Of a stretch of DNA of 64,000 nucleotides, positions 34,168 through 62,289 are shown piece after piece. The stretch covers positions 19,216 to 83,215 of the forward strand of contig JAZNWH010000105.1 of assembly GCA_045593265.1 (NCBI GenBank), read 5' to 3'. The stretch's first letter is position 1. Every line of letters starts with the position of its first letter. The notes under the pieces were generated by a model. The model had not been told where the DNA came from. It did no database searches and was given only the letters and a program-made list of their open reading frames with translations. Origin of the DNA: Clostridia bacterium (GTDB taxonomy: Bacteria > Bacillota > Clostridia > RGIG6154). A program made the translations under genes and the position numbers.

Positions 34168-35091
34168 TTATTCAAACTTTCCAAGAAATTTTATTTCAGG
34201 GTAAATCATAACCCCTTGTTTTTCAAAAACTGTCTTTTGACAATGTTTTATTAATTTATATATGTCAAGAGCTTTTGCATTTCCCTTATTTACTATAAAA
34301 CCACAATGCTTTTCGGAAACACAGGCATCACCAATTGAATACCCTTTAAGTCCACTGTCCTCAATTAATTTTGCTGCAAAATACCCTTCCGGACGCTTGA
34401 ACGCCGAGCCTGCACTCGGATAATTGAGAGGCTGTTTTTCAAGACGTCGTGATGCGAGCTCATTCATAAGAGCGCTTATTTCATCCTTATTTCCCTTTTC
34501 AAGCTTAAAGGTTGATTCGAGGACATATAACCTTTCGTCAGAAAACATACTGTGTCGGTAAGAAAGATGTGCATCCTTTCCATCAACACAAAAAACATTT
34601 CCTGCTTCATCGCAATATTCGACTTTTTCAAGAACATCCTTAAGCTCACCACCATAAGCTCCTGCGTTCATAACAACGCCACCACCGGCAAATCCCGGTA
34701 TGCCTGAAGCAAATTCAAAGCCTTTAAGGGAATTGTTTAATGCAACTCCTGCGATTTTCGCAAGACTTACACCACAACCGGCAATGATTCTGTCTCCATC
34801 GCAATATACGTGGTCGATACATTCGGTAAGAACAACCACTCCGTCAAACCCATCATCTGAAACCAATAAATTTGAACCATTTCCAACAACTGTATATTCA
34901 AGAGATGTATCTTTCAGGTACTTTATAATTTCAACAAGCTTTTCTTTGGACTGAGGCTTTACAACTACCTTTGCTTCCCCACCTGTCCGAAAGCTTGTAT
35001 GTTTTTTCATAGGTTCATTATACAGAACATTTGCATTACCGCAAATATCTCTTAATCTGTTCATTGAAACCTCCCGAAAAAATTTATTCAT
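34168..35091 (-). CDS. murB: UDP-N-acetylenolpyruvoylglucosamine reductase
   Basis: 307 aa. FAD-binding plus MurB C-terminal domain. Confidence 0.85.
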   Translation of the reverse strand: MNKFFREVSMNRLRDICGNANVLYNEPMKKHTSFRTGGEAKVVVKPQSKEKLVEIIKYLKDTSLEYTVVGNGSNLLVSDDGFDGVVVLTECIDHVYCDGDRIIAGCGVSLAKIAGVALNNSLKGFEFASGIPGFAGGGVVMNAGAYGGELKDVLEKVEYCDEAGNVFCVDGKDAHLSYRHSMFSDERLYVLESTFKLEKGNKDEISALMNELASRRLEKQPLNYPSAGSAFKRPEGYFAAKLIEDSGLKGYSIGDACVSEKHCGFIVNKGNAKALDIYKLIKHCQKTVFEKQGVMIYPEIKFLGKFE

Positions 35092-36037
35092 TTAAAAGTG
35101 CCGCTCCTATAATACCGGCATCATTTCCTGTAGTTGCAGCTACAATTCTTGTCTGAGGAACACCTGTCATATTTCCGTATATCTGAGACATTACTTTTTC
35201 TCTTAACGGTGCCAGAAGATTTTCCCCCTCATTTGCAACACCACCACCAATAACAAGGACCTCAGGCATAAAAATATTAATCATATTCGCTACACCGCAA
35301 GCAAGATAATTTATGTATGTTTCAACTACCTCGCAAGCAGCCTTATCGCCATCGTCAGCCGCTAAAAATGCTGTTCTGCCACTCCATTGGCCTTTTTCAT
35401 TATAATATTCCCACATAAGAGAATCCTTATTCTGTTCAGCTTTTTCCTTGGTCATGCGAATTAAAGCTGTTGCAGATGAATATGCCTCCCAGCATCCTAC
35501 TCTTCCACAGCTGCATGGAATACCATTTTCTTCGATAACAACATGACCAAGCTCAGCACCACAATAATTAAAACCACTGTAAAGTCTGCCGTTTATAATA
35601 ATACCGCCGCCTACACCTGTTCCCAATGTTATCATAACAGCATTTTCGGTTCCCTTTGCAGCCCCTGCAACAAATTCTGCCCAGGCAGCACAGTTTGCAT
35701 CATTATCAATATATATATCAACATTTCTGCCGAAATATTCAATCATCTTGTCTCTTATAGGCATATTATTAAAATCGAGATTGTTAGCATAAAGAACCTT
35801 ACCATTTTTTTTATCAATGGTGCCGGGAGAACCGATACCTACCGACTTTATATCATCAAATGTAATTTTCTGTTCTTCAAGTAAATTCAAAACAATTTTA
35901 CTCATTGCCTGAACAATGTATTCTCCACCTTTTTCTGCACAAGTAGGAACGCTTTTCTTTAAAATAATCTTTCCTTCTTCATCAACAATACCTGCCGCGA
36001 TATTTGTACCGCCCAGGTCTATACCAACATAATACAT
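35084..36037 (-). CDS. glcK: ROK family glucokinase
   Basis: 317 aa. YVGIDLGGTNI, with the CxCGxxGCxE zinc motif. Confidence 0.8.
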   Translation of the reverse strand: MYYVGIDLGGTNIAAGIVDEEGKIILKKSVPTCAEKGGEYIVQAMSKIVLNLLEEQKITFDDIKSVGIGSPGTIDKKNGKVLYANNLDFNNMPIRDKMIEYFGRNVDIYIDNDANCAAWAEFVAGAAKGTENAVMITLGTGVGGGIIINGRLYSGFNYCGAELGHVVIEENGIPCSCGRVGCWEAYSSATALIRMTKEKAEQNKDSLMWEYYNEKGQWSGRTAFLAADDGDKAACEVVETYINYLACGVANMINIFMPEVLVIGGGVANEGENLLAPLREKVMSQIYGNMTGVPQTRIVAATTGNDAGIIGAALLNE

Positions 36038-37770: not shown

Positions 37771-37926
37771 ACTTTCAATTATTTTCCATTGATTATAATA
37801 GAAAACTTTCGTTTTCTGTGAAATTAAACAAATCCTTTATCATACGCTGCAGGCGTATTTCATATTGCGAAGTAATATTTCACTCCCGAAGGGTATTTCA
37901 CGAATCCTGAAAGGATTTATTTCATT

Positions 37927-37988
37927 GAAAAACGACTTGTCGAAACAAGTCGTCAGCCCGCTGACAAAGTCAAAGTCAGCGGGCTGAC
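37927..37988 (-). terminator. tandem hairpins + U-run (terminator/attenuator-like) in the leader upstream of the HAD-hprK operon
   Basis: Perfect 14-bp GC-rich inverted repeat GTCAGCCCGCTGAC-N9-GTCAGCGGGCTGAC. A second hairpin ACGACTTGT-cgaa-ACAAGTCGT and TTTTT follow directly on the minus strand. Confidence 0.4.
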
Positions 37989-38049
37989 ACCCCATAGGAT
38001 GTTTTTTCGTTGGAAGAGCCGAATGATTTAGATGCCGTATATTTTTTAG

Positions 38050-38141
38050 GCGATATACTCGCTCACGCTCGTGCGATATATTTGCTTTGCAAATTCGATA
38101 TAATCTCACTTCGTTCGATTGCGATATGATATAAAATTCCT
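38050..38141. repeat. intergenic repeat element copy A (CGATAT-rich; similar to 59550-59639)
   Basis: Small hairpin CACGctCGTG, then AAATtCGATATAAtCtCActt...TTGCGATATGAtAtAAAATTCCT. About 70-75% identical to copy B. Confidence 0.45.
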
Positions 38142-38231
38142 TTATCTCGTTGCCGAAAGGCAACATATCGCATCGAAGATATATCGCGTACGAAGTACAT
38201 ATAACAAATTACGTCAGGAATTTATATCGTT

Positions 38232-38271: not shown

Positions 38272-38347
38272 TGGTGGGAACAATAGGGCTCGAACCTATG
38301 ACCCTCTGCTTGTAAGGCAGATGCTCTCCCAGCTGAGCTATGCTCCC
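38272..38347 (-). tRNA. tRNA-Val (anticodon TAC)
   Basis: Reverse complement is GGGAGCATAGCTCAGCTGGGAGAGC...CTTACAA...GGTTCGAGCCC...CCCACCA. Cloverleaf fits and CCA is encoded. Confidence 0.85.
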
Positions 38348-38368: not shown

Positions 38369-38445
38369 TGGTAGCGGCGAGTAGACTTGAACTACCGACC
38401 GTTCGGGTATGAACCGAATGCTCTAGCCAACTGAGCTACACCGCC
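38369..38445 (-). tRNA. tRNA-Met elongator (anticodon CAT)
   Basis: Reverse complement is GGCGGTGTAGCTCAGTTGGCTAGAGC...TTCATAC...CGCCGCTACCA. Closely resembles Firmicutes elongator tRNA-Met. Confidence 0.8.
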
Positions 38446-39136: not shown

Positions 39137-40651
39137 TCATTTGCTGTTACGAGTAGCATTAAATAAAGCCTCATGTATATTCCAATCACGGGAAACTAAA
39201 AGTTCTTCGGCTTCATTTTCATTTATCTTCAGTATTTCGCAAATCATAGCTACAGCTCTTTTCTTCAGTTTTATGTTTGATGGATTCATATGTGTCATAT
39301 AGTTTTGCCAAGTGCATCCCATTTTAACAAAAACTGCAGTAGAAAACATATTAAGTATCATTTTCTGGGCACTTCCTGCTTTCATTCGGGTAGAGCCTTT
39401 GATGACCTCTGCACCTGTCAACGCCTCTATTGCTATATCGGATAAATCTGCCATTTCTGTATCAAGGTTGTTGACGATTGCTCCCACCTTACAACCACAC
39501 TCTTTAGCTTTTTCCATAAATGCAACTACAAATGGTGCACGTCCTGCAGCAGAAATTCCGATAATTAAATCGTTTTTTGTACAGTTTTGTTTTTCAAATG
39601 CTGCAACACCTGCCTGGCGATTGTCTTCGCAACCTTCTGAGGCATTGGTAATGGCTTTTTCTCCTCCCGCAATTACAGCAGTTATGGTTTCTCTTGAAAC
39701 ACCATATGTCGGTGGACATTCTGCCGCATCGGCTACAGCCAGACGACCACTTGTGCCTGCACCACAGTATATAATACGTCCACCATTTTTCAAAGCTTCT
39801 ACCCCTGCATCAACTAATTTTGCAACCTGTGGAATACAGCTCTTAACAATTGCAGAAACTGATGCATCCTCTCTTTGAATTATTCGTAAAATTGATTGGG
39901 TTGAACCATCTGCTATTCTGTCAGAACGAATATTTCGTGTTTCGGTACGAACATAATTATTATCCCCTTTTTTAGGTATAAAGCTGTTATAATAACGAGT
40001 GATGGCTATAGGATTTGTAATAGCCTTTCCTATGACAACAGCATCTGCTCCTATATTAAAGGCTTCTCTTATATCCTCGCTGCCCCAGATACGCCCTTCT
40101 GCCACAACCTTACAAGGAAGTTTAGCATCAACAATCTGAGATAACAATGTAAAATCAGGCACATACAATTCGTCATCGGTATGTAATGCACCGGGAATAT
40201 ATCCTGCCAATGTAGTGGATACTGCATCAACTCCCATATTTGCAGCGTTAACTGCTTCTTCAAAAGTTGAAATGTCTGCCATAACAGGAATACCAAGTTC
40301 TTCGTGAATACGACGAATTAGTTCTCTGCGTTCTTCTGCAATATCGCTGGGGTAAAAGGTTGCGTCAAGGGCAATAATGCTTGCACCTGCCTCGTATATT
40401 TTTTTAGCACCTTCAAAATCAGGTGTGATTACTGTTCTGCCTGTGGAGTCTTTACGTTTATCAATACCGATAATAGGAATTGAAACACGTTTACGCATAG
40501 CACTTATGTCCTCTACACCGTTGGCACGTATTGCTGATGCACCTCCAATAGCAGCAGACTCTGCCATAAGTGCAAGTGCCTGAGAATTGCGGAAAGGGTT
40601 TCCTTCAAGTGCCTGTGCAGACACAATTAATCCTGTTGGAAAGTCAATCAT
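39137..40651 (-). CDS. bifunctional fusion: N-acetylmannosamine-6-phosphate 2-epimerase (NanE) domain + N-acetylmuramic acid 6-phosphate etherase (MurQ, SIS) domain
   Basis: Single 504-aa ORF. Residues 1 to about 225 are NanE-like (GLIVSAQ, AIRANGV, IPIIGIDKR, SIIALDATF, VSTTLAGY). Residues 228-504 are MurQ-like (TETRN..., GGRIIYCGAGTSGRLAVADAAECPPTYGV). Confidence 0.8.
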   Translation of the reverse strand: MIDFPTGLIVSAQALEGNPFRNSQALALMAESAAIGGASAIRANGVEDISAMRKRVSIPIIGIDKRKDSTGRTVITPDFEGAKKIYEAGASIIALDATFYPSDIAEERRELIRRIHEELGIPVMADISTFEEAVNAANMGVDAVSTTLAGYIPGALHTDDELYVPDFTLLSQIVDAKLPCKVVAEGRIWGSEDIREAFNIGADAVVIGKAITNPIAITRYYNSFIPKKGDNNYVRTETRNIRSDRIADGSTQSILRIIQREDASVSAIVKSCIPQVAKLVDAGVEALKNGGRIIYCGAGTSGRLAVADAAECPPTYGVSRETITAVIAGGEKAITNASEGCEDNRQAGVAAFEKQNCTKNDLIIGISAAGRAPFVVAFMEKAKECGCKVGAIVNNLDTEMADLSDIAIEALTGAEVIKGSTRMKAGSAQKMILNMFSTAVFVKMGCTWQNYMTHMNPSNIKLKKRAVAMICEILKINENEAEELLVSRDWNIHEALFNATRNSK

Positions 40652-41580
40652 TTATCTTTCGCTCCTTTAATATATAAATCTTTTGCAATTTTAAAAGTTC
40701 CTTTAATAAGACCGTCAGAAACATAGTGTATTTTAACATTGGGCAAAATTTGACTTACTGCAGCTTCAAAATACTCTTTCCAGAATTTACAGGAATGAAT
40801 AAGACCTCCCGTAACAACAATATTTGGAATTTCTCCTGTAAGCTTTTTCGCAGTACATACAACCAATTCCGAAAGCTTTTCACCGGAATACTTAAATATA
40901 TCAAGAGCTGTTTTATCGCCCTTTTCTGCAAATTTTGCAACTATTTTCGACAGAGAGGCAATGTTTTGCCTGTCAAGAGGATAAAGATTTCCTCGTATCT
41001 GGTCTCTTTTGTCTCTGTAAACTGTTGGGTCATCAGTTGCAGAAAGGGGTCTTATGCAATTACACAGTTCCTGTGTGAGAGGAGACAATTCTTCTGTATT
41101 ATCCAGTGCACGCAAACTCATACGAATTGCCTGAAGTCCGATATCATAGCCACTTCCGTCATCTCCTATATTTATTCCCCATCCACCTGTGATTACAAAA
41201 CCATTATCCGATTTTCCAACTGCAATTGCTCCCGTTCCTGCCATAAGAACAATGGGAGCATTATATTCTTCTCCTAATGCATAGGCAGCAGTACCTTCTG
41301 ATTCACGAAAAATTTTTAGTGGTGTATCAGGGAAAAACTTTTTGAAACAAAGTTTAACCTGCTCTGTGTTTCGTCCTCCAAGATTTATGGAAACAGCTCC
41401 GATATTTTCTTTATCTGGGATTTCGTTAATCTGTTTTTCAAGAGAAGGAAGTTCCAAAGTACTATCTACAGCACTTGCAATTCCACCTGAAACAGACTCA
41501 TGTATTATATTTCCTTCTATGTCTGTTATTTTAAGTCGTGTATTGGTACCACCAATATCAGCGATAAATAGATGTTTCAT
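40648..41580 (-). CDS. murK: BadF/BadG/BcrA/BcrD-type ATPase, MurNAc/GlcNAc kinase (MurK-like)
   Basis: 310 aa. N-terminal LFIADIGGTNTR and a DGSG motif. MurQ context as in the Clostridium murK locus. Confidence 0.65.
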   Translation of the reverse strand: MKHLFIADIGGTNTRLKITDIEGNIIHESVSGGIASAVDSTLELPSLEKQINEIPDKENIGAVSINLGGRNTEQVKLCFKKFFPDTPLKIFRESEGTAAYALGEEYNAPIVLMAGTGAIAVGKSDNGFVITGGWGINIGDDGSGYDIGLQAIRMSLRALDNTEELSPLTQELCNCIRPLSATDDPTVYRDKRDQIRGNLYPLDRQNIASLSKIVAKFAEKGDKTALDIFKYSGEKLSELVVCTAKKLTGEIPNIVVTGGLIHSCKFWKEYFEAAVSQILPNVKIHYVSDGLIKGTFKIAKDLYIKGAKDK

Positions 41581-41592
41581 ATTTCTCCTTTC

Positions 41593-43482
41593 TTAAAACA
41601 ATCCTTTTTTCAAAGCAACACCAAAGCCAAGACCCATAAGAATTTCAGCTACAGTCCATCCGCTTTCTATACAGCATGGCCCCCAACCCACATCGTGAGG
41701 CATACCATATATTTCCATACGCTTAAGGTCAAGGCATCTTGCCCATGCACCATCATTTTTTTTATCATCGCTTACAATTTGTGCATCTGACATAAACTTA
41801 GCTATATCTTCCCATTTTTTCAGGAAGATTACATCATTGGTTACATAATAAGCATAAGAAAACCCTAAAGGCAACCAATTAAGAGAATACAGCATCTCAG
41901 CTATTTCATTTCCATTATCTGCAAGCATAGAAGATTCTGTGCCTGCTGTTCTGCTTCTATATGCTGTATAGCCAGGGTCAACTTCGGTATATCCACCGGT
42001 TTTATGGCGATAGATTTCAAGACGCTGACAAACATCATAGAGCCATTGTTTATGTTCTTCACTTCCTGTAACCTGATAAAGGCACGCAAGTGGAAAAATG
42101 AGTCTGCACAATTCTTCCGTTTCGCTTATTGCACGCATAGTTTCGGGATATACTCCCATAATGGTTGACAAGCCTTTTACAGCCGTTTCCTTGTATATTT
42201 CCTTGTGGTTGAGCTGATATGCAAGAAGAAGTGCAGCGCTGTAGTAGGCATTACGATGTGCACAGTACTGATTTGAAGGTTTTGATGTCATTTCCTTTAT
42301 TTTTTCATCAGTAAGATAGCTTGTATGAACACCATGTTCCATAAGTCCGTCAGTACCCGTTATACTGATAAGAAAATCAAGAGCTGCTTCAACCTGAGGC
42401 AACAGACTCATATCTTTGGTATACATCATATAAAATAAAGTACTGATAACAGCTCTTCCTGTATCATCTCCGTATACGGTACACCACGCACCTTCTGTCC
42501 ATCTGAGCATTCCTGAAAATTTCCCTGTTTTAATCTGCATTTTATCAAAAATGAAACTCGAAAGATTCTTGTAAACAGCAAGGGATTCTTTGTTATTCGA
42601 CAGAATATAATCAAAAAGATATGCACCTGCTATCTCCCCTACACAATCAACACGAACATTGTTTCTTTCAGCCTGAACACCATCAGGAGTAATTGGATGA
42701 GCCATACCCTCTCTTGCACCATCTTTTCCGTTGTCAAGAAGAATGTTGCATCCATCAAACCATGCCATTCCTCTGTCAAAAGTGCCCTGTGCATCACAGT
42801 TACTGCCAAGAGTATAGTATGGAGCGGGCATCTGTATTTGCTCTACTCCTAAATGATTAAGAATAATTTCAAGAATTCCACACCAGGATTCAAAAGGAGC
42901 AAATCTTGCTTTTACAAAGTTTGAAATACGAAATGAACATACAAGTCTGTTTTCGTTATAATACCAGAGTCGCCAGTCTCTTGTTGCAATCTCATCAGTT
43001 TTTATTTTTGACGCATCTATGTGGTCGTGGCTGACAATATGCCCACCATTATAGAGTATTGGATATGCATTATCAGGTAAAAAAATATGGTTGCACCCTC
43101 TATTTGCCTGGCTGTCAAGCAAATCACCAAATGTCAAGCTTTCGGTATCGCTTCCGATATATACATATCTGTTCATAGTATCACTCATAGAATCTCTGCC
43201 ATCATTGTAATCATCACCATCGGTATAAGTATATCCAAGGCTTGCACACCATTCGTAGAATATCGGCTTACCACTTTCAGCGAACTCCTCCGTTTTAACA
43301 CGAAGTGATGCACTAAGCACACGTGGTCTTGTATTCTCTGTTCCACAAAGCAAAGCTATAGCCGAATAGACAGATAAATCTTTGAGTTCAGCTTCCTTGA
43401 ACGAGAGCATTTCACATTTTCCTGAGTTCATTAAAATATTGCTTAAATCACTTTTGTTATCACTTATAATCAATATAGACAT
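41593..43482 (-). CDS. uncharacterised 629-aa cytoplasmic protein (N-terminal ~220-aa domain + probable alpha/alpha-toroid-like C-terminal domain)
   Basis: No signal peptide, TM or recognisable catalytic motif. First gene of the MurNAc operon, divergent from murR. Contains a GWGPCCIESGW segment. Confidence 0.6.
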   Translation of the reverse strand: MSILIISDNKSDLSNILMNSGKCEMLSFKEAELKDLSVYSAIALLCGTENTRPRVLSASLRVKTEEFAESGKPIFYEWCASLGYTYTDGDDYNDGRDSMSDTMNRYVYIGSDTESLTFGDLLDSQANRGCNHIFLPDNAYPILYNGGHIVSHDHIDASKIKTDEIATRDWRLWYYNENRLVCSFRISNFVKARFAPFESWCGILEIILNHLGVEQIQMPAPYYTLGSNCDAQGTFDRGMAWFDGCNILLDNGKDGAREGMAHPITPDGVQAERNNVRVDCVGEIAGAYLFDYILSNNKESLAVYKNLSSFIFDKMQIKTGKFSGMLRWTEGAWCTVYGDDTGRAVISTLFYMMYTKDMSLLPQVEAALDFLISITGTDGLMEHGVHTSYLTDEKIKEMTSKPSNQYCAHRNAYYSAALLLAYQLNHKEIYKETAVKGLSTIMGVYPETMRAISETEELCRLIFPLACLYQVTGSEEHKQWLYDVCQRLEIYRHKTGGYTEVDPGYTAYRSRTAGTESSMLADNGNEIAEMLYSLNWLPLGFSYAYYVTNDVIFLKKWEDIAKFMSDAQIVSDDKKNDGAWARCLDLKRMEIYGMPHDVGWGPCCIESGWTVAEILMGLGFGVALKKGLF

Positions 43483-43503
43483 ATGTAATCCTCCTTGTGA
43501 TTA

Positions 43504-43535
43504 ATTGTTACATTAATATATTTTTATGTAACAAT
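43504..43535. promoter_or_regulatory. candidate MurR (RpiR) operator: perfect inverted repeat in divergent promoter region
   Basis: ATTGTTACAT-N12-ATGTAACAAT between the divergent 629-aa operon and murR. Confidence 0.45.
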
Positions 43536-43665
43536 TATACATTTATATATTGTAAATGTCAATACTTTTTGATAAAAGTATTGCAAAAATAATAAAAACA
43601 TTGTAGAATTAAAGAAACAATGTTACAAAAAATATTATTTCTGAACAGAAAGGTTTTATTTTACT

Positions 43666-44508
43666 ATGAGGAAAGATCTTGTCCAATTTATCACAGAAAA
43701 ATATACATCTATGACAAATAGTGAAAAAACTATAGCAGATTATATAATCAACAATCTCGAACACGTGCTTACCATAAGTGTGCAGGCACTGTCTGCAGAA
43801 CTAAACATCAGTGTCGCAACAATTGTTCGTTTTGCTCAACATTTAGGCTTTGACGGATATAAAGAATTCAGGCTGTGTCTTGCACAACTTGGTAATGAAC
43901 ACGAAGATTTTATTTTAGATTTTCACAAAAACGAAAACTCCCCCGATGCACAGATTTCAAAAATGCTTATATCCTGTTCAGAATGTTTAAACCTTACACG
44001 TCAAAATATAGATTATGATACTTTAACTGATATTGTCCAGGCAATTCACAGTGCTGAAAAAATAGCCTTCTTCGGTGTCGGAACTTCATATATAGTTTGT
44101 CAGGATGCATCCGTTAAATTCAAACGAATAGGAATTAATGCAGAATGTGCCTGTGAATCAACATCGGCATCACTCATTTTACTAAACATGAAAAAAGGTG
44201 ATGTGGTTTTTGGTATTTCTCATTCGGGAAACAACGAAACTGTAGAGAAAATATTAAAAATGGCACAAAAGATGGGACTGACAACAATTGCAGTAACAAC
44301 TTTCAGCAACACTAATATTTGCAAAACAGCAGATTACACGTTATTTACACAAACAAGAGAAAGTCCTTTGCACAAAATTGCCATCACATCCCGTGTAAGT
44401 CAATTCGCTATGATGGATTCTCTGTTTATGGCATATCTTACAATCAATTATGACCAGTGTATCAGTAACATCGAAAAAACTCATGAAATAAGTGAAGGTT
44501 TAAAATAG
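43666..44508 (+). CDS. murR: RpiR family transcriptional regulator (MurR-like; HTH_6 + SIS)
   Basis: 280 aa. Confidence 0.8.
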   Translation: MRKDLVQFITEKYTSMTNSEKTIADYIINNLEHVLTISVQALSAELNISVATIVRFAQHLGFDGYKEFRLCLAQLGNEHEDFILDFHKNENSPDAQISKMLISCSECLNLTRQNIDYDTLTDIVQAIHSAEKIAFFGVGTSYIVCQDASVKFKRIGINAECACESTSASLILLNMKKGDVVFGISHSGNNETVEKILKMAQKMGLTTIAVTTFSNTNICKTADYTLFTQTRESPLHKIAITSRVSQFAMMDSLFMAYLTINYDQCISNIEKTHEISEGLK

Positions 44509-44524
44509 AATATGCTTTAACTTA

Positions 44525-44560
44525 AAACTGCCCGGCTGAGTTTCAGCCGGGCAGTTTTTA
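44525..44560. terminator. bidirectional terminator between murR and the MATE gene
   Basis: AAAACTGCCCGGCTGA-gtttc-AGCCGGGCAGTTTTT. Confidence 0.7.
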
Positions 44561-47001: not shown

Positions 47002-47871
47002 TCAATATGGGACAACAATATTTTTTGCCACTTTGATTTCTTCATCTGTTGGTAAGGTCTGTGGCAGCGTATTTTTCATATTTAACGCAGCATATTTTGA
47101 GCCAGCATAATTATGATACGGCAAAACTTTTACCCTTGTTATATTTTGAAGCTGTTTTAAAGATTCTGCAATTTTTTCAATTTGGTCAGAATTATATTCA
47201 GGTACATATGGTATACGAATTTCTGTTTCTTTGCCCAAAGAATCGATATATTTAAGATTATCCAATATAATTTTATTGCTTTGTCCTGTGCATTTAACAT
47301 GCACATTCTCATCAATTGCCTTAATATCATATAAAAATGTATCGGTGTAAGGCAAAACCTTATCAATACTTTCTTTTGGTACATATCCACAGGTATCAAC
47401 TGCTGTATTTATACCTTCTTTTTTTAACATATGTAAAAGCTCTGCACAAAAATCTGCCTGCATAAGACATTCTCCGCCCGAAAGTGTTACTCCGCCGCCG
47501 CTTGTTTCATAAAAGTCCTTATCTTCAAGTAATATCGGCAAAAGTTCATCTACTGTCATTTCCTTGCCGTAAAATTTCAGTGCTTCGCCAAGACAAGCCT
47601 TTTCACATTTTCCGCAAGCAACACATAAATCTCTTTCAAAAATATGACCTTCTCGTGTGATTTTGTGTGCACCTGATGGGCATACAAAAACGCATTCGCC
47701 GCAACTGATGCACTTGTTTTCGTAATATGCAAGCTGAGGCTTAAAATCAATGCTTTCGGGATTGTGGCACCACACACATTTTAGTGGACAGCCTTTGAAA
47801 AATACCGTTGTTCTTATTCCGTCACCATCGTGTACAGCAAAATGTTTTATATCAGAAATTAATGCTTTCAT
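47002..47871 (-). CDS. glycyl-radical enzyme activating protein (radical SAM, with two ferredoxin-like 4Fe-4S motifs)
   Basis: 289 aa. Radical [11 protein letters not shown], then [12 protein letters not shown] and [11 protein letters not shown]. Overlaps the GRE by 4 nt. Confidence 0.85.
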
Positions 47872-50105
47872 TTAGCATTCTCCGCTCTTAAAATATATGC
47901 ATCCTGCTCTTTTTTGCTCATATTATTCCAAAGAGTATTCCAACCACAAACTCTAACCTGCAGATTTTGATATTTTTCCGGATTTTTTTGTGCATCACGC
48001 AGAGTGTCTGTATTAAAAATATTGAACTGAATTGACTGACCGCCTTTGTTAAGATAGGTCATAAGAACACCTTTTAGCACATTTAATCCATCCTCGCCTT
48101 CAACTGCACTCGGGTGAAGCATAACATCAACACAAAACGATTCGTGATAATCAGACGGAATGAGCTTAGTCGCAGACTCAACCAAAGCCGTAACACCTTT
48201 TTTATCCATACTGACAACGGGAGAAGCATTTTTAGACAGTTCTTCTCCTTTTAATCTTCCATCCGGCAAAGCTCCGGTTTTTTCTCCCTGGTTTATAAAA
48301 GCACGGGCAGTGTGGAATATCGCTTTATACACACCGCCTCTGCCATTAGGTACATTATTCACCTTATTTGCAAAATAGCTTGCCATAGCTGATGCGTAAG
48401 TATCTGCCACAGCATCGTTGTTACCATATTTATGTGGCGATTTTTTTATTTGAATCTGTAATTTTTCGTAACCCTTCCAGTTAACTTCCAAAACCTTTGC
48501 AAGCTCAGACAGCGTTATTTCTTTTTTATCAAAAACAAATTCTTTTACCGCCATAATGCTGTCAACCGCACTGGCAAAACCGCAGTTAAGCATCGCATTG
48601 TTATTGAACTTAACACCACCGCCGTATCCGTCTCTGCCGTTTTTCAAAGAAGTTTCAATTGTCGCAGAATACATAGATGACGGATTTACAAATGCAAGAA
48701 AACGTTCTGCATCATTTGTGATTTTCATACTTTGCTCAATGAGATATTCCCATTGTTTTAAAAAGGCAAAATAGAAATCTTCAAATGTTTTGATTTCTGA
48801 AATCTCACCTGTTTTTACACCAACCTGTTTTTTAATCCCATAATCATACCCATTAGTAAACACAAACTCCACGGCTTTTGCCACATTTACATATCCCGAA
48901 GATGAACAAACCTCATTTGCCCTGACTCCTGTTTCATAACATCCTCTGATATCATAGTTAATCGCTTCTTCATAAGTAGCTCCATAACCCATTATAGCTT
49001 TTATCATAGCAGGCTCACAACAAAATACAATGCTGGCATTTTTTCGGCGAACCATATCAAAAGCTTTATTTAAGATTTTATCAGGTGTATTTTTATTTAT
49101 CTTCAACTGTATTTTAGGGTTATAGATTTCAAGCTCATCATATACATCAAGAATTTCGTATGAAAGTTCGTTGTACTTCGTGTTGCTGTTTAAATCGGTG
49201 CCACCCATATAAAACGGTTGCCCCCAATAGTTGCCTATGGCAGACCACTGCATAAAAAAGTAAGATAAATAATTTCTTATATCCTCTTTTGTGCATTTCC
49301 CCGACTCCAGATCATTTTTATAAAATCCGTACAACGTATTATCAAGACCGTTGCCTAGAGAACGAACCTGATAACTGTCTATTGATTCAGATATTATAAA
49401 AAATATATAAATAAACTGTAATGCCTCATAAAAACAAGTTGGATGTCCATCACGAAGATTTTTTAAACACTCAGCTATTTGAGGTGCCTTTTCAAAGGTT
49501 AATTCGCAAGCAGTACGATACATTCTGTCAATTAAATCAATAATTGCTGTGTATTGAATTTCAATGCCATCGAAAAATGCTTCTGTTTCTTTAGTCATAG
49601 TTTTGTTCTCACTGTGCATTTTACGGTATTCTCTTGCTCTTTCACGAATGCCAACAAACCCTAATTCCATTAAAGATTTCCAGTCAGGAACAACATGATC
49701 ATAGTCTGTACGTAGTGTTACTGCACCTGAATTGTTAAAATCATTGGAGCACTCCATAGTCTCGGGATTTCTTAAGGTGTGTGATTCTTTTTCCCATTTT
49801 TTGAAGGTGCTTTCGTTAGCTAAACGATTCAGCGAATAAAGACCTACAAAATAATCGTGCTCATTTATATACAAACGTTGATTTTCAAGAACATATTTAA
49901 TGGCTTTTGCTCTTACAATCGGGTGAGGTAAATTTTCGTTCTCCTTCGAAAGCTGTTCAAGTCCTTTTAACAGTTCCTCATCAACTATCCCACTTTCCTC
50001 TATATAGCCTGTTCCGTGATATGCCATACGGCTAAATGCATCAAATTCTTTTTCGGGATCGTGATATTTTCGTTCAATAAAATATCTGTCTGCAGAATTA
50101 ATCAT
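47868..50105 (-). CDS. glycyl radical enzyme, PFL2/glycerol-dehydratase-like clade, substrate unknown
   Basis: 745 aa from MINSADRY; RBS AGGTGGAG. The ORF could extend to 50129. C-terminal glycyl motif LQVRVCGWNT. Cys loop IRGCYETG sits 332 residues upstream of the radical Gly. Confidence 0.85.
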   Translation of the reverse strand: MINSADRYFIERKYHDPEKEFDAFSRMAYHGTGYIEESGIVDEELLKGLEQLSKENENLPHPIVRAKAIKYVLENQRLYINEHDYFVGLYSLNRLANESTFKKWEKESHTLRNPETMECSNDFNNSGAVTLRTDYDHVVPDWKSLMELGFVGIRERAREYRKMHSENKTMTKETEAFFDGIEIQYTAIIDLIDRMYRTACELTFEKAPQIAECLKNLRDGHPTCFYEALQFIYIFFIISESIDSYQVRSLGNGLDNTLYGFYKNDLESGKCTKEDIRNYLSYFFMQWSAIGNYWGQPFYMGGTDLNSNTKYNELSYEILDVYDELEIYNPKIQLKINKNTPDKILNKAFDMVRRKNASIVFCCEPAMIKAIMGYGATYEEAINYDIRGCYETGVRANEVCSSSGYVNVAKAVEFVFTNGYDYGIKKQVGVKTGEISEIKTFEDFYFAFLKQWEYLIEQSMKITNDAERFLAFVNPSSMYSATIETSLKNGRDGYGGGVKFNNNAMLNCGFASAVDSIMAVKEFVFDKKEITLSELAKVLEVNWKGYEKLQIQIKKSPHKYGNNDAVADTYASAMASYFANKVNNVPNGRGGVYKAIFHTARAFINQGEKTGALPDGRLKGEELSKNASPVVSMDKKGVTALVESATKLIPSDYHESFCVDVMLHPSAVEGEDGLNVLKGVLMTYLNKGGQSIQFNIFNTDTLRDAQKNPEKYQNLQVRVCGWNTLWNNMSKKEQDAYILRAENAK

Positions 50106-50217
50106 ATAATCTCCACCTTTCAAACGCATTTTAGCATAAAAAGAAATTTAATACAATGAATTAAAAGAAACATTTGACTTTTTAGAAACAAAATTATATA
50201 ATAAATACGGTGATTAT

Positions 50218-50988
50218 ATGATTAATTTTATGAAACATGATTTTATTATTGATAAAATTGAGCTTGCATGTATAGTAAAAGCCGGAAAAGGTTCAATGAT
50301 TCACAAAAACAGAGCAAGCAATGGATTGGCTCTGTTTTTAGGTGGCGAAAGAACTTTCTGCTTTGATGAGAAAAAGTTTAAGGTTACCAAAAACACAATC
50401 GTGTATTTTCCAAAAGGCTCAAACTACGTGATTAAAGAAAGAGAAGCTTCTGATTGCTATGCAATTAACTTTCAAATGCCTGATAACGTATTTTTTGAGC
50501 CGTTTGCATTTAAAATAAAAAATCTTAACACATATTTAGAAAACTTCAAAAACAGTCAGAAAATATGGGATAAAAAATCTACGGGGTATTTTTCGAAAGT
50601 TAAATCTGAGCTTTACAGCATAATTTACAATATGCAGTCAGAATATCTTATTCCGTACGGTAATTCATCTGTAATTAAGCCAGCTATTGATTATATACAC
50701 TCGAATTATTATAAAGAGAACATAAGTGTTGTGCATCTGGCATCACTCTGCGATATCAGCGTTGTGCATTTAAGAAACTGCTTTATTAAAAATTTCGCCC
50801 TATCGCCTGTTAAATATATAAATTTTCTTAAGCTAACTCGTGCAAAAGAGTTGCTTGAGTCAGGAATGTATACTGTTGGTGATGCTTGCTTCTTATCCGG
50901 CTATAATGACGAAAGCTATTTTTCCCGTGAATTTAAAAAGTCTTTTAAAAAATCACCAAAAGAATATGCAAAAGCATCCCGTAAATAG
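50218..50988 (+). CDS. AraC family transcriptional regulator (cupin-like sensor + HTH), divergent from GRE
   Basis: 256 aa with a C-terminal AraC HTH. Confidence 0.8.
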   Translation: MINFMKHDFIIDKIELACIVKAGKGSMIHKNRASNGLALFLGGERTFCFDEKKFKVTKNTIVYFPKGSNYVIKEREASDCYAINFQMPDNVFFEPFAFKIKNLNTYLENFKNSQKIWDKKSTGYFSKVKSELYSIIYNMQSEYLIPYGNSSVIKPAIDYIHSNYYKENISVVHLASLCDISVVHLRNCFIKNFALSPVKYINFLKLTRAKELLESGMYTVGDACFLSGYNDESYFSREFKKSFKKSPKEYAKASRK

Positions 50989-51004: not shown

Positions 51005-52063
51005 TCACTTTATTCTTTCAGCCTCAGCCAGCATATTCTCGATGAATATTCCATAACCTCTCGTTGGGTCATTTACAAAAACATGGGTTACTGCACCTAT
51101 CAGTTTCCCATTTTGAACTAAAGGTGAACCCGACATTCCCTGCACGATGCCTCCTGTCAGGTTCAGGAGTGTTTTGTCGGTAATTTTAATTGTAAAGCCT
51201 TTTATAGTATTATCACCGCCACGAAGTATTTTACTGATTTTTACGCTATATTCTTTTACTTCTCCTCCTGCTATATTACTCAGAAGCATTGCCTCGCCCT
51301 CTGTAATTTCCTGAGAACTTGCAATCTCGATTTGAGGTGAATTGATATCTATGGACAGATTTCCTGCTATTCCGTTTGGTGAATTAGTTTTTATAGAACC
51401 TATAATCTTTCCGTTATTGCCGAAAGAGCCTGTTATCTCCCCTGTTTTACCTAAGGTCGGTTTTGTTATTTTAAAATTATCTGCAAAAAAACATTCTGCA
51501 AAAGAAATAGTAAAAGACACATTCGTATCAACATCATTTATAGGATGACCCAATGCCATAAACTTTTTGTTTTGCGTATCATAAAAAGTAACTGTTCCTA
51601 TTCCTGCAGTACTGTCCCGAACCCAGAGTCCTGCTCTTGTAGTATTTTCTTTAGTTATATGTGGTTCTAATGAAACCGTAAGTTTTTTTCCTTCTCTTAT
51701 TATATCTAATTTAACTTGTTTTTTATTTTGAATTTTTTCAGAAAAATCCGAAATCGAAAAGAGCTTTTTGTTATCTACGTGGGTTATATAATCACCCTTT
51801 TTTAATCCTGCTTCTTTTCCCGGAGAAACGTTTCCGTTATTCGTTTTTAATTCAGTTATATCTACTATAAGTATTCCGTCTGAGAAAAGCTTGATTCCTG
51901 CTATTTGCCCACCAGGAACAACTGTTCTTGGTGCGTAAACAGCTTCTGCAACGGACACATTATCTTTAAAGCCATTGAGACACGCGTTAAAAAAAAGCGC
52001 ACATAAAAGAAAAATTATCAAAGATAAACAAATTTTCTTTTTCGTAATTATCATTCCTTTCAT
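51005..52063 (-). CDS. spoIVB: SpoIVB-like S55 serine peptidase (PDZ + peptidase)
   Basis: 352 aa. N-terminal TM/signal, PDZ domain, GMSGSPLV serine motif. Confidence 0.7.
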   Translation of the reverse strand: MKGMIITKKKICLSLIIFLLCALFFNACLNGFKDNVSVAEAVYAPRTVVPGGQIAGIKLFSDGILIVDITELKTNNGNVSPGKEAGLKKGDYITHVDNKKLFSISDFSEKIQNKKQVKLDIIREGKKLTVSLEPHITKENTTRAGLWVRDSTAGIGTVTFYDTQNKKFMALGHPINDVDTNVSFTISFAECFFADNFKITKPTLGKTGEITGSFGNNGKIIGSIKTNSPNGIAGNLSIDINSPQIEIASSQEITEGEAMLLSNIAGGEVKEYSVKISKILRGGDNTIKGFTIKITDKTLLNLTGGIVQGMSGSPLVQNGKLIGAVTHVFVNDPTRGYGIFIENMLAEAERIK

Positions 52064-60344: not shown

Positions 60345-61370
60345 TTACATTTCAACAACAGCTTTTATTAGGTTTTTATCTTTAGATTTTAAAAGCTCAA
60401 CTGCGTTTGGCAGTTCATCAAGGGTAAATGTATGTGTAACCATATCATGAACGTTTAATCTTCCACTTGCTACAAGAGTAACAAGCGAATCCCAACCTGC
60501 ACAGTACTCAAGAATTCCGTGAAGTCTTAACTGCTTCATAAGCATTTTCATAAATGGAAACGAAATCTGTGCCTTTTCGTCAGGAATTCCGTAATATAAA
60601 ACATCTCCACCTATTTTGCACACATCAAAGCAAAGTAATATACTGTCAACACTTCCGGCAGCGTCAATAACATAATCACAACCTTCTCCGTTTGTCAGTT
60701 CCATTACTCTTCCAAGTACATTTTCGTTCTGTGCATCAATGACCACATCTGCTCCAAAGAACTTTGCATATTCAAGTCTTTTTTCGCCCTTTGCAGAAAC
60801 TATTATTTTTCCTGCTCCACTAAGCTTTGCCGCCTGTATAAACGCAATTCCTGCAGGGCCTGCCCCCTGAATCAACACACTGCTTCCGGGTTTAATTCCT
60901 ATTCTAAGCACAGCACCAAACGGGCAAGCAACACTTTCAAGTATTGCCGCATCCCTGAACGGAATCTCTTCCGGTAATTTTACAAGACACTGCGCCGGAA
61001 CTCTTACAAACTCAGCATATCCTCCATCATAAGGTGTATAACCTATCTCCATTCTGTCAGGACAAAGTTCCTTTCTGCCCCTTTTGCAAGCCGGGCATTG
61101 TCCACAGGAAATAATTGTATCAATTACAACTCTGTCGCCCTTTTTCCAGCCTTTTACACCCTTGCCTATATCTTCAATCTCTCCGGCAATTTCGTGCCCC
61201 AGCACATGCGGAGGCTTTGCAAGAGATATATTTCCTGAAATCATATGCACATCTGTTGCACAAACACCAACTGCCTTCACCTTTACAACAACATGACCTT
61301 CATCTGCCACGGGCTTCGGTCTTTCGCATATGCTGACGTGATTTATTGCGTCCCAAACCGCTGCTTTCAT
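60345..61370 (-). CDS. zinc-dependent medium-chain alcohol/polyol dehydrogenase (sorbitol/threonine DH-like)
   Basis: 341 aa. GHE...GD catalytic zinc motif, structural-zinc Cys cluster, GAGPAG NAD-binding motif. Confidence 0.8.
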   Translation of the reverse strand: MKAAVWDAINHVSICERPKPVADEGHVVVKVKAVGVCATDVHMISGNISLAKPPHVLGHEIAGEIEDIGKGVKGWKKGDRVVIDTIISCGQCPACKRGRKELCPDRMEIGYTPYDGGYAEFVRVPAQCLVKLPEEIPFRDAAILESVACPFGAVLRIGIKPGSSVLIQGAGPAGIAFIQAAKLSGAGKIIVSAKGEKRLEYAKFFGADVVIDAQNENVLGRVMELTNGEGCDYVIDAAGSVDSILLCFDVCKIGGDVLYYGIPDEKAQISFPFMKMLMKQLRLHGILEYCAGWDSLVTLVASGRLNVHDMVTHTFTLDELPNAVELLKSKDKNLIKAVVEM

Positions 61371-61386
61371 AATACTTCTACCGCCT

Positions 61387-62283
61387 TTATTTTATCTTTT
61401 TAATACCTCTGAACAATTCGTCAAGTTCAGCATACATAGAAAGTCTGAGAGCTCTTATTGCCTGTTCATCGACTACCTGACAATGCCCCATTGAAAAACC
61501 TCTCTGCTCAAAAACAAGCTTATATCCACTTGGGAACATAACAGAATCCGCAAGTCTTAGAAGTTTGAGTGCCTTACGGTTCAAATCCTGTGCCTCGGCA
61601 ATATGTCCTGCATTAAAAAGCTCATATATTTTTGCATTAATTTCGGGAACAATTACCGAAAATGCCGTAACCGAACCCACGCAACCTGCAAGAAGCGCCG
61701 GTACAATACAGTCATCTGTACCTGTCATAAGTGAAAAATCCGGACGGTTCCTGCGGACTATATCTGCTTCGTGAGCTATCTGCTTCATATTTCCTGAAGA
61801 ATCCTTCATGCCGACAATACGTCTTTCCTGAAGCAGTGTTTCAAAAGACGGAAGCTCTATAGTATTGGTAAACATCGGAATTTTGTAAAGAACAAGGTCG
61901 ATAATATTCTGGTCTGCCATATACTTATAGTACCTTATAACATCATCCTGTTTCATGGTAAAATAATACGGTGGACAAATCATCGCAGCATCATATCCAT
62001 ACTCCTGCGCTGCCTTCAAATATTTTATAGAAGTTGCAGGATTGGGATCTGAAGCACCAGCAAGAAGTTGTTTCTTGCCACGAAGATGCTTCGCTGTAAA
62101 CGCCATAAGTTCAATATTTTCTTCAGGAGAAAGACTTACAAACTCTCCCGTTGTGCCACAGGCAAAAAATCCCTGAATATCAGATTTTAATAAAAAATCC
62201 AATTGAATTTCAAATGCATTATAGTCAACTTTTCCCTCTTCGGTAAAAGGAGTTAACAGAACACCATATGGTCCTCTAAACAT
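61387..62283 (-). CDS. DapA/NanA-family class I aldolase (dihydrodipicolinate synthase family)
   Basis: 298 aa. GTTGE motif. Confidence 0.8.
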   Translation of the reverse strand: MFRGPYGVLLTPFTEEGKVDYNAFEIQLDFLLKSDIQGFFACGTTGEFVSLSPEENIELMAFTAKHLRGKKQLLAGASDPNPATSIKYLKAAQEYGYDAAMICPPYYFTMKQDDVIRYYKYMADQNIIDLVLYKIPMFTNTIELPSFETLLQERRIVGMKDSSGNMKQIAHEADIVRRNRPDFSLMTGTDDCIVPALLAGCVGSVTAFSVIVPEINAKIYELFNAGHIAEAQDLNRKALKLLRLADSVMFPSGYKLVFEQRGFSMGHCQVVDEQAIRALRLSMYAELDELFRGIKKIK

Positions 62284-62289
62284 TTTCTT

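Follow-up and report, generated by a model that had tools for sequence, protein, structure and literature searches.

Introduction

The ManNAc-6-P 2-epimerase NanE and the MurNAc-6-P etherase MurQ are individually well understood. In the Staphylococcus aureus epimerase (SaNanE), residues Q11, R40, K63, D124 and E180 are essential: activity is lost altogether when R40, K63 or D124 is substituted, and only 0.05% of kcat remains in E180A (PMC8482478). A sixth active-site residue, Arg208, binds O3/O4 of the sugar (the C3/C4 hydroxyls), and R208A keeps ~4% of kcat with a KM that is roughly 10-fold higher; catalysis involves abstraction of the C2 proton from the open-chain sugar (PMC8482478). The canonical role of NanE is in sialic-acid catabolism, and nan operons are reported to be under the control of RpiR-type regulators (PMC13635753). 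NanE also occurs joined to another amino-sugar catabolic enzyme in bifunctional NanE-NanK proteins, which have the canonical Arg208 and a ROK kinase and lack MurQ.

MurQ is an etherase of the SIS fold, exemplified by the Haemophilus influenzae (1NRI/4LZJ) and Escherichia coli proteins. Work by Hadi and colleagues from 2008 reportedly identified Glu83 and Glu114 as the catalytic glutamates of E. coli MurQ and is said to have described abstraction of the C2 proton from an open-chain sugar. Known genetic systems include MurT-MurK-MurQ and MurR-MurQ-MurP (PMC5790795). The specificity of Tannerella forsythia MurK involves the small residues S133/P134/L135 together with T94, which leave room for the lactyl ether (PMC10465942). 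In the literature searched, nothing relevant to a fusion or an operon of NanE with MurQ was found, nor was a pathway for joint processing of ManNAc and MurNAc described. Here, we consider a gene of a gut Clostridia bacterium that encodes both enzymes as one polypeptide within the window, i.e., the whole 64-kb stretch of DNA that was analysed.

A Conserved NanE-MurQ Fusion Protein

The fusion gene (39137..40651, minus strand) begins with ATG and encodes 504 amino acids followed by a stop codon, without internal stops when read from 40651 to 39137; the plus-strand frame over the same interval contains many stops. An earlier, sequence-only reading had recognized the continuous 504-residue frame and missed its strand; the domain boundaries that it proposed (1 to about 225 and 228–504) were correct within a few residues. 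Residues 1–225 (39977..40651, minus strand) make up a NanE-type (β/α)8 2-epimerase domain, which matches NCBIfam PRK01130 over residues 5–225 (218.4 bits; cut-off 189), Pfam PF04131 over residues 27–224 (E 5e-49, 166.6 bits; cut-off 27) and the Clostridium perfringens NanE 4UTT over residues 7–222 (E 2e-37). Residues 234–504 (39137..39952, minus strand) form the MurQ domain, with matches to PRK05441 over residues 234–501 (324.8 bits; cut-off 168), to PRK12570 (295.2 bits; cut-off 255) and to H. influenzae MurQ over ~260 aligned residues (E 5e-68), and with a score of 281.7 against the strict equivalog TIGR00274 that lies slightly under the cut-off of 302. With curated models matched above their cut-offs on both sides, the claim that a NanE domain is joined directly to a full MurQ stands. 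ThiG, IMPDH and NMO TIM-barrel models matched the N-terminal domain weakly, at or below the cut-offs of those families, and the domain is a NanE rather than a ThiE/ThiG-like protein, the kind of match that the same reading had named as grounds for refutation.

The linker between the domains (39953..39976, minus strand; about residues 226–233, ~10 residues) is predicted to be disordered, with AF2 pLDDT values below 50 for residues 224–231, and the AF2 model of the whole protein shows no fixed orientation between the domains (pTM 0.58).

A search for the same fusion elsewhere recovered the NanE-MurQ architecture in about 70 clusters (90% identity clustering) at a query coverage of at least 97%, with identities that descend from 99 to ~45% and with sequences drawn from four data sources (ENA, JGI, NCBI and Logan assemblies). 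The linker differs in length and sequence across the family, yet the frame is kept in every case. An assembly or frameshift error that fused two neighbouring genes might be imagined, as unfused loci exist in which NanE and MurQ genes stand side by side in the same order. This explanation has a negligible probability and was ruled out because some 70 clusters from independent assemblies show the same architecture in an uninterrupted frame. The fusion protein is genuine and evolutionarily conserved as one polypeptide. The annotation in current use for such proteins is only "MurNAc-6-P etherase", and the epimerase half is overlooked.

Active Sites and a Lys-Asn Signature in NanE

Both active sites are intact. 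In the MurQ domain, E311 in DAAECPP aligns with DASECPP of H. influenzae MurQ and E339/E342 in SEGCED align with VEGAED; these glutamates are invariant family-wide, in 19 of 19 sampled fusions with 45–86% identity. The domain differs from known MurQ proteins in being joined, as the C-terminal half, to a second domain and in scoring slightly below the TIGR00274 cut-off. In the NanE domain, Q13, R42, K65, D126 and E185 correspond to Q11, R40, K63, D124 and E180 of SaNanE and are likewise invariant in the 19 sampled fusions. With the S. aureus (6VVA) and C. perfringens (4UTT) enzymes, the domain shares its TIM-barrel family, the xPxIGIxK motif and the catalytic Lys, Glu, Arg, Asp and Gln.

The sixth active-site residue departs from the canonical pattern. 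The NanE signature Val-Gly-[Ser/Gly]-Ala-x-Thr-Arg (VG[SG]AxTR) is not matched in the fusion, which reads VIGKAITN: the equivalent of Arg208 is always Asn (N213; nt 40013-40015), and the canonical Gly/Ser is always Lys (K209; nt 40025-40027). The Asn is not specific to fusions. It is common among stand-alone NanEs. The 150 nearest NanE representatives include numerous NanE-NanK (ROK) fusions (P0242, P0245, L105-L113 and others), and the Arg208 equivalent is missing from about half of the 150. It is the Lys-Asn pair, rather than Asn alone, that tracks MurQ. The 20 Lys-Asn NanE sequences all fall within a single clade, and every member with sufficient flanking sequence has MurQ fused to it or next to it. 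An independent scan covered 80 metagenome loci: five of the six with a Lys-Asn NanE had MurQ fused or adjacent, versus one of the 74 others (p = 1.5e-6). Only Lys-Asn NanEs were found fused or adjacent to MurQ, with the exception of one independent fusion in the reverse order, MurQ-NanE (P0338/L090), which has Thr at the Lys209 position and is adjoined by a BadF kinase gene.

Loci related to the window operon show how this linkage varies. In L094 and L116, an unfused module has the order kinase-NanE-MurQ, and the NanE and MurQ genes overlap by 23 nt or lie 2 nt apart; L088 carries RpiR-MurQ-GH42-like-kinase-NanE-SBP, also unfused. Fusion has fixed the NanE/MurQ linkage on at least two occasions. 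Lys-Asn loci usually also encode a cytoplasmic glycosidase-like protein, which varies in identity (the UNK630 protein described below, a GH42-like protein or another). Some loci contain carbohydrate esterases or deacetylases, such as SASA in L094 and Polysacc_deac_1 in L085, and in the neighbourhood of L085 there is a sialidase-like (BNR_2) gene. A deeper subgroup of fusions (P0076-P0081; 476–482 residues, ~38% identity) has an intact MurQ and has lost the Q, R, K and E residues from the N-terminal domain; the sole genomic context examined from this subgroup (P0079, L086) is without a kinase.

Operon Structure, Regulator, and Kinase

The fusion gene stands last in an operon of three, after those for UNK630 and a BadF-type kinase. 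A perfect σ70-type promoter, TTGACA-17-TATAAT (43534..43562, minus strand), precedes the operon, and both of its hexamers are kept in related loci; ribosome-binding sites are present, the kinase stop codon overlaps the fusion start (ATGA), and no internal terminator is found. Divergent from the operon lies a gene for an RpiR/MurR-family regulator with HTH_6 and SIS domains (43666..44508, plus strand), followed on its 3' side by a strong terminator-like hairpin (44524-44558). A 36-nt palindrome with the core TTGTTACAT-N12-ATGTAACAA (43502..43537) is located between the −10 element and the ribosome-binding site; it occurs once in the window, its half-sites are kept in L001, L004, L006 and L007, and it is a candidate RpiR operator. 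A second conserved inverted repeat, AACATTGT-N12-ACAATGTT (43597..43624), in the divergent intergenic region may be a second operator. The regulator probably represses the operon through the palindromic operator.

The kinase (40648..41580, minus strand; 310 residues) belongs to the BadF/BadG/BcrA/BcrD family of sugar kinases. Its best match among solved structures is MurK (8ZO3), a MurNAc/GlcNAc kinase, with a full-length alignment at E 3e-18. Like MurK, it is a BadF/NagK-family protein encoded beside a MurQ, but the relationship is distant; only 8ZO3 was matched, and the operon kinase is too far from T. forsythia MurK in sequence for the specificity determinants of that enzyme to be mapped onto it. 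With a BadF-family kinase of predicted specificity directly upstream and a divergent RpiR gene, the context resembles that of known MurQ genes; in contrast to the known systems, the operon has neither MurP nor MurT as transporter. The linkage of kinase, Lys-Asn NanE and MurQ recurs. A MurK-like BadF-family kinase accompanies Lys-Asn NanE in every sampled locus bar two contigs shorter than 2 kb, and kinase and fusion are adjacent in each intact subfamily examined (L001-L007, L003, L084, L085, L087, L102). The operon kinase may alternatively be a ManNAc kinase, because kinases of the same family are also found beside, or fused to, Asn-type NanE at loci without MurQ (P0251, P0268, L091).

Neither nanA nor nanK was found in the locus or the window at the cut-offs of curated models, as the sequence-only reading had stated. 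The window encodes a single ROK protein (35084-36037), which passes the model for glucokinase and not that for NanK. The only DHDPS-family protein (61387-62283), encoded 21 kb away beside a sugar-acid dehydratase gene, fails the cut-offs for both NanA and DapA. That reading had overlooked the changes in the NanE motif as well as the kinase and the 629-residue partner.

UNK630, a Partner Without a Named Family

The first gene of the operon (41593..43482, minus strand) encodes a 629-residue cytoplasmic protein of an unnamed family, here called UNK630, with an N-terminal α/β domain of ~215 residues and an (α/α)6 barrel. The window protein has no Pfam or NCBIfam match; its N-terminal domain gives a weak DJ-1/PfpI-like signal, and 32 homologues give scattered weak matches to GH47, GH127, GH88 and GH76. 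UNK630 is only 10–13% identical to the six-hairpin (α/α)6 enzymes (AGE/cellobiose 2-epimerase/YihS, GH88, GH76) and differs from them by the extra N-terminal domain. By sequence it belongs neither to AGE/cellobiose 2-epimerase nor to GH76/GH88; the likeness is one of fold only, and no single family is clearly closest. UNK630 represents a new (α/α)6 family and is glycosidase-like. A literature search on DUF4127 returned nothing relevant.

The family occupies at least 245 genome loci. In Paenibacillus, Cohnella, Oceanobacillus, Radiobacillus and peat or soil contigs, UNK630 accompanies stand-alone or ROK-fused NanE and ABC sugar transporters, and in P. montanisoli the gene order is NanE-RpiR-UNK630-MurQ-ROK kinase. 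One homologue (P0234) carries, in addition, a fused phosphodiesterase domain of the GDPD type.

Alternative Interpretations

The two domains might catalyse consecutive steps, as fused enzymes usually do. The Lys-Asn NanE would then epimerize a 3-O-substituted (lactyl-bearing) amino-sugar 6-phosphate, e.g., the C2 epimer of MurNAc-6-P, to MurNAc-6-P for cleavage by MurQ, and its substrate would not be ManNAc-6-P. The Arg208 that is replaced here by the smaller Asn contacts the C3/C4 hydroxyls, and it is C3 of MurNAc that bears the lactyl ether; the Lys four residues before this Asn occurs only in MurQ-linked NanEs, and C2 proton abstraction from an open-chain sugar is common to NanE and, reportedly, MurQ. 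However, Asn is also frequent in NanEs without MurQ nearby (13 loci), so that the enlarged pocket is not MurQ-specific, the Lys could merely make up for the charge that loss of Arg removes at the phosphate, and the reverse-order fusion has Thr instead. No natural origin for this epimer was found, "manno-muramic acid" being absent from the literature searched, and we regard this account as doubtful, tending toward unlikely. An unlikely reading is that the operon serves the linkage unit of teichoic acids or secondary cell-wall polymers (ManNAc-β1,4-GlcNAc-1-P-6-MurNAc), with UNK630 or the GH42-like protein as a β-N-acetylmannosaminidase. [quoted passage not shown] The esterases and deacetylases of several loci would fit as well, and the GDPD fusion of P0234 is the only direct hint. 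Yet a phosphodiesterase gene is absent from the window operon and from the other fusion loci, NanE and MurQ are both missing from the vicinity of UNK630 in ~65 of 80 genome loci, the variable third partner argues for several different glycans, and no catabolism or recycling of the linkage unit was found in the literature searched.

Sialic-acid catabolism would require nanA and a transporter elsewhere in the genome, with MurQ merely co-located and both routes feeding GlcNAc-6-P. The canonical role of NanE, the reported RpiR-type control of nan operons (PMC13635753), the sialidase-like gene near L085 and the SASA esterase of L094 are consistent with it. It is nevertheless quite improbable: the kinase is BadF/MurK-like rather than a ROK NanK, the MurQ linkage is exclusive to the Lys-Asn clade and has become fixed as a fusion on two or more occasions, and a DHDPS/NanA-like gene occurs in 0 of 14 Lys-Asn loci, a weak control given that just 4 of 51 Arg-type loci have one. 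The earlier view that the locus may not serve sialic-acid catabolism is in keeping with this context (MurQ, the MurK-like kinase, a glycosidase-like partner and the lack of NanA-like genes), although the specific linkage-unit substrate proposed with it does not share in that support. Very improbable is a NanE domain that lacks catalytic activity and serves MurQ as a scaffold or regulatory module. The degenerate N-terminal domains of P0076-P0081 beside an intact MurQ, the missing kinase of P0079 and the lack of a fixed domain orientation would suit such a role. Against it, the five essential residues and, apart from the Lys/Asn change, both signature motifs are invariant in the window protein and in all 19 sampled relatives of at least 45% identity, which indicates selection for NanE catalysis.

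A Proposed Salvage Pathway and Its Significance

The most likely role of the operon is to salvage amino sugars from bacterial cell walls and not sialic acid. Of the specific accounts, we favour, with somewhat better than even confidence, a bifunctional cytoplasmic enzyme in an RpiR-controlled operon that converts cell-wall HexNAc 6-phosphates to GlcNAc-6-P. In this proposal, for which substrates and direction of flux are predicted, a cell-wall glycan oligosaccharide would enter through a transporter encoded elsewhere, neither a transporter nor a phosphodiesterase being encoded in the window operon. UNK630, as a glycosidase-like protein, would break the oligosaccharide down in the cytoplasm, a role that may fall to a GH42-like or other protein in other lineages, and the MurK/NagK-like kinase would phosphorylate the freed N-acetylhexosamines at C6. 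The MurQ domain would remove D-lactate from MurNAc-6-P to give GlcNAc-6-P, and the NanE domain would invert C2 of ManNAc-6-P, or of a close 2-epimer, to the same product. Compared with 6VVA and 4UTT, the fusion adds MurQ and has a BadF-type instead of a ROK kinase in a locus without NanA; compared with NanE-NanK proteins, its fusion partner is an etherase.

A further proposal, put forward tentatively and held to be doubtful, is that the Lys209/Asn213 clade has a new specificity that co-evolved with MurQ (e.g., for lactyl-ether or other 3-O-substituted HexNAc-6-P) and, together with a MurK-like kinase and the glycosidase-like partners (UNK630, GH42-like), constitutes an undescribed salvage route for ManNAc/MurNAc cell-wall fragments. 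If so, UNK630 would be the founder of a new family of carbohydrate-active enzymes, possibly a β-N-acetylmannosaminidase.

The repeated, conserved fusion of NanE and MurQ is "Rosetta-stone" evidence for joint processing of ManNAc-type and MurNAc-type sugars, and the two-residue Lys209/Asn213 signature predicts MurQ linkage. UNK630, a widespread family without Pfam or NCBIfam matches, is now tied to amino-sugar metabolism. The hosts include many uncultured gut and rumen Clostridia, in which the genes are fused, and bacteria of biogas, sediment and soil, in which they are unfused; the fusion offers a concrete starting point for studying how debris of bacterial cell walls is scavenged by anaerobes.

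A Bifunctional NanE-MurQ Protein

The gene at 39137..40651 on the minus strand encodes a 504-aa fusion of NanE (ManNAc-6-P 2-epimerase) and MurQ (MurNAc-6-P etherase), the translation of which has no internal stop. The sequence-only reading had the domains, their order and the continuous frame right, as translation and Pfam and NCBIfam searches confirmed, but not the strand; the plus-strand reading of this interval contains many stops. The domain scan that it proposed matched both halves of the protein. PF04131 (NanE, Pfam) matches residues 27-224 (E 5e-49), with SIS/GKRP_SIS domains C-terminal to it, and PRK01130 (NanE, NCBIfam) matches residues 5-225 with 218 bits vs. a cut-off of 189. PRK05441 (MurQ, NCBIfam) matches residues 234-501 with 325 bits vs. 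a cut-off of 168, PRK12570 is also above cut-off, and the strict MurQ equivalog TIGR00274 scores 281.7, slightly below its cut-off of 302. Other TIM-barrel families were rejected for the N-terminal domain, as they score sub-threshold only.

The same fusion, which the earlier reading suggested seeking in other genomes, was found by protein search in ~70 clusters (90% identity) of 497-515 aa that cover at least 97% of the query. These span 99% to ~45% identity, derive from ENA, JGI, NCBI and Logan assemblies, and are carried mostly by ruminant and human gut Clostridia MAGs, plus one Lentisphaeria MAG; source annotation, where it names them, reads solely “MurNAc-6-P etherase.” From the end of the NanE barrel to the first conserved residues of MurQ, the linker is variable in both sequence and length and always keeps the frame, which, across ~70 clusters, excludes a frameshift artefact as the origin of the fusion for practical purposes. 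An AlphaFold model contains two well-folded domains (pLDDT ~90) and a disordered linker (residues 224-231), and its pTM of 0.58 means that no fixed domain orientation is predicted. The fusion is a real bifunctional protein and a variant of known enzymes; no description of it or its pathway was found in the literature searched.

Active Sites

The active site of Staphylococcus aureus NanE consists of Gln11, Arg40, Lys63, Asp124, Glu180, and Arg208, and the NanE signature motifs are xPxIGIxK[basic] and VG[S/G]AxTR; Arg208 binds sugar O3/O4, while the backbone amide at the Ser/Gly motif position binds phosphate (PMC8482478). The fusion and all 19 sampled relatives of at least 45% identity have Q13, R42, K65, D126, and E185 without exception. 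In the fusion and the same relatives (19/19 for each position), Asn (N213) stands in place of Arg208 and Lys (K209) in place of the motif Ser/Gly, a combination referred to here as Lys-Asn NanE. The MurQ domain aligns with Haemophilus influenzae MurQ (1NRI/4LZJ; E 5e-68) and keeps the glutamates of DAAECPP (E311) and SEGCED (E339/E342), presumably Glu83 and Glu114 of Escherichia coli MurQ. As judged from these sequences, both catalytic centers are under selection. A deeper subgroup of fusion clusters (P0076-P0081; 476-482 aa, ~38% identity) has an intact MurQ domain and an N-domain that has lost the Q, R, K, and E of NanE, and which resembles a pseudo-enzyme domain that an active etherase has kept. 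No kinase was adjacent to the P0079 fusion (L086 8001-9446), the sole context of this subgroup examined.

Operon Structure and Regulation

The fusion gene is the last in a compact operon on the minus strand. This operon opens with a gene (43482-41593) for a 629-aa protein without a Pfam or NCBIfam match, named here UNK630, and its second gene (41580-40648) encodes a BadF/BadG/BcrA/BcrD-family kinase, the stop codon of which overlaps the fusion ATG (ATGA). The best solved relative of this kinase is the MurNAc/GlcNAc kinase MurK (8ZO3), matched over its full length (E 3e-18). A perfect promoter, TTGACA-17-TATAAT (43562-43534, minus), is followed by a 36-nt palindrome with the core TTGTTACAT-N12-ATGTAACAA, the only copy in the window, with half-sites conserved in four related loci. 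A further inverted repeat (43597-43624) is likewise conserved, and an RpiR/MurR-type regulator gene (43666-44508) is divergent from the operon.

The absence of nanA and nanK, already claimed from the sequence, was borne out. The sole ROK gene of the window (35084-36037, next to murB and hprK) qualifies as a glucokinase by model score and not as NanK, and the sole DHDPS-family gene (61387-62283, beside a sugar-acid dehydratase) falls below the NanA and DapA cut-offs. A DHDPS-family ORF was found at 0/14 Lys-Asn loci, a weak control since only 4/51 canonical loci have one.

Conservation of the Module

The kinase adjoins the fusion in all intact subfamilies examined. UNK630 is the third partner in loci L001-L007, L003, and L102, a GH42-like protein takes its place in L084 and L087, and the Lentisphaeria locus L085 has no third partner. 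In L101 (3-1892), a 629-aa ORF joins an unknown ~310-residue N-terminal half to a BadF-type kinase and adjoins a truncated NanE, with a MurQ-like match flagged nearby.

A search with the NanE domain alone queried 1.8 billion representatives, and the 150 nearest relatives were compared. Arg208 is not universal among them, being Arg in about half and Asn or Asp in many, and, outside the fusions, the Lys-Asn pair occurs in just three stand-alone proteins and a single fragment. The stand-alone Lys-Asn protein P0243 lies in the order RpiR-MurQ-GH42-like-BadF kinase-NanE-SBP, an unfused version of the module. P0251 and P0268 are BadF kinase-NanE fusions; further fusions among P0248, P0383, P0349, and P0336 are NanE-SIS_2, NanE-phosphoglucomutase, FAD oxidoreductase-NanE, and NanE-GDSL esterase.

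Generic NanE peptide patterns, run against metagenome contigs, yielded 80 further loci (L093-L172), which were typed by the two motif residues. MurQ was fused or adjacent at five of six Lys-Asn loci, the sixth being a contig of 1.8 kb, and at none of the 13 x-Asn or 51 x-Arg loci; BadF kinases occurred at 5, 11, and 5 loci of these types, and ROK kinases at 0, 0, and 21, respectively. Fisher tests, whose p-values overstate independence because Lys-Asn NanE is one clade, gave p = 1.5e-6 for Lys-Asn with MurQ, p = 6e-9 for Asn213 with BadF kinase, and p = 3e-4 for Arg with ROK kinase. The linkage of kinase, Lys-Asn NanE, and MurQ is recurrent and clade-specific. The residue at the Arg208 position also predicts kinase family, Asn accompanying a BadF-type kinase at 16/19 loci and Arg a ROK kinase at 21/51 loci vs. 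0/19 for Asn, which suggests two coevolved kinase/epimerase pairs.

In a neighbor-joining tree of 226 NanE domains, built without bootstrap support, 20/20 Lys-Asn sequences form one exclusive clade in which fused and unfused members interleave. P0338 (L090 599-2179), a Thr-Asn type fusion in the reverse order, MurQ-NanE, with an ABC permease upstream and a BadF-like kinase downstream, groups among Thr-Asn types. This topology implies a minimum of two fusion or fission events, and probably three. In the unfused Lys-Asn loci L094 and L116, the genes run kinase-NanE-MurQ, and the NanE and MurQ frames either share 23 nt or are separated by 2 nt; stop-codon loss in such an arrangement would produce the fusion.

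The UNK630 Partner

Homologs of UNK630 form 148 clusters, called hypothetical where sources name them; precomputed Pfam domains occur only in P0165 (GH127-like) and P0234 (an added GDPD phosphodiesterase domain). At least 245 stretches of species-representative genomes encode a relative, carriers including Paenibacillus, Cohnella, Oceanobacillus, Radiobacillus, Clostridium amylolyticum, and Fumia. The AlphaFold model, which is confident (pLDDT 93.7, pTM 0.92), consists of an N-terminal α/β domain of ~215 residues and an (α/α)6 barrel. Profile searches found no solved relative, and lenient Pfam scans of homologs gave only scattered weak six-hairpin and DJ-1/PfpI matches. The family has many invariant acidic and aromatic residues, e.g., Y337-x-D339-D340-x-x-R343.

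Neighbors are not fixed for most UNK630 genes. At six Bacillota loci, UNK630 occurs with a stand-alone canonical NanE and an RpiR regulator, in differing combinations with a ROK kinase, an ABC sugar transporter and glycosidases or DUFs (DUF4127, DUF4855, GH95-, GH123-, and GH94-like); the order in Paenibacillus montanisoli is NanE-RpiR-UNK630-MurQ-ROK. In peat and soil contigs, UNK630 adjoins NanE-ROK fusions. Because it co-occurs with Lys-Asn, stand-alone and ROK-fused NanE, UNK630 is linked to NanE in general, a link best explained if UNK630 supplies a ManNAc-type sugar.

At the Paenibacillaceae/Bacillaceae loci L069 (11923-15217), L073, L039, and L068, genes for NanE, UNK630, an ABC transporter, and a ROK kinase occur together with DUF4127, DUF4855, GH95-like, GH123, GH94-like, and Gfo/Idh/MocA genes. 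No NanA was seen at these four loci, which look like uncharacterized ManNAc-glycan utilization loci; DUF4127 was not mentioned in the literature searched.

Other Features of the Window

A Gut-1 RNA (Rfam RF01706; 37852-37927, minus) scores 61.9 bits vs. a gathering score of 50, and two tRNA genes (38275-38347 and 38372-38445) immediately precede it. A 108-aa ORF (37840-38166) is probably spurious, since it overlaps this RNA and has no family match. The region 47002-50988 encodes a PFL-like glycyl-radical enzyme (753 aa), a radical-SAM activase and a divergent AraC regulator, and the related MAG locus L001 has a similar enzyme/activase pair close to its fusion operon. A minus-strand cluster at 60345-63965, probably a sugar-acid pathway, encodes a Zn-dependent dehydrogenase, the DHDPS-family aldolase, a truncated-looking M24 peptidase-like ORF and an enolase-superfamily sugar-acid dehydratase. 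Spore formation by the organism is indicated by two minus-strand genes, one (11997-12806) for a PdaA-like muramic δ-lactam de-N-acetylase that scores 292 bits vs. a cut-off of 298, and one (51005-52063) for a SpoIVB peptidase. Muramic lactam of the spore cortex is further MurNAc-derived material that the cell has to turn over.

Functional Interpretation

Along with the fusion, the operon encodes a MurK-like kinase and a glycosidase-like protein. Catabolism of the wall-teichoic-acid linkage unit (ManNAc-GlcNAc-P-MurNAc), proposed from the sequence alone, is a candidate function compatible with the evidence. The Lys/Asn replacement, which falls at the O3/O4-binding position and the phosphate loop, leaves open that this NanE acts on a different substrate, notably a lactyl-bearing 2-epimer; the NanE and MurQ domains would then catalyze consecutive steps. 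The most economical mechanism for the operon is a cytoplasmic funnel, through which cell-wall-derived N-acetylhexosamines would be converted to GlcNAc-6-P.
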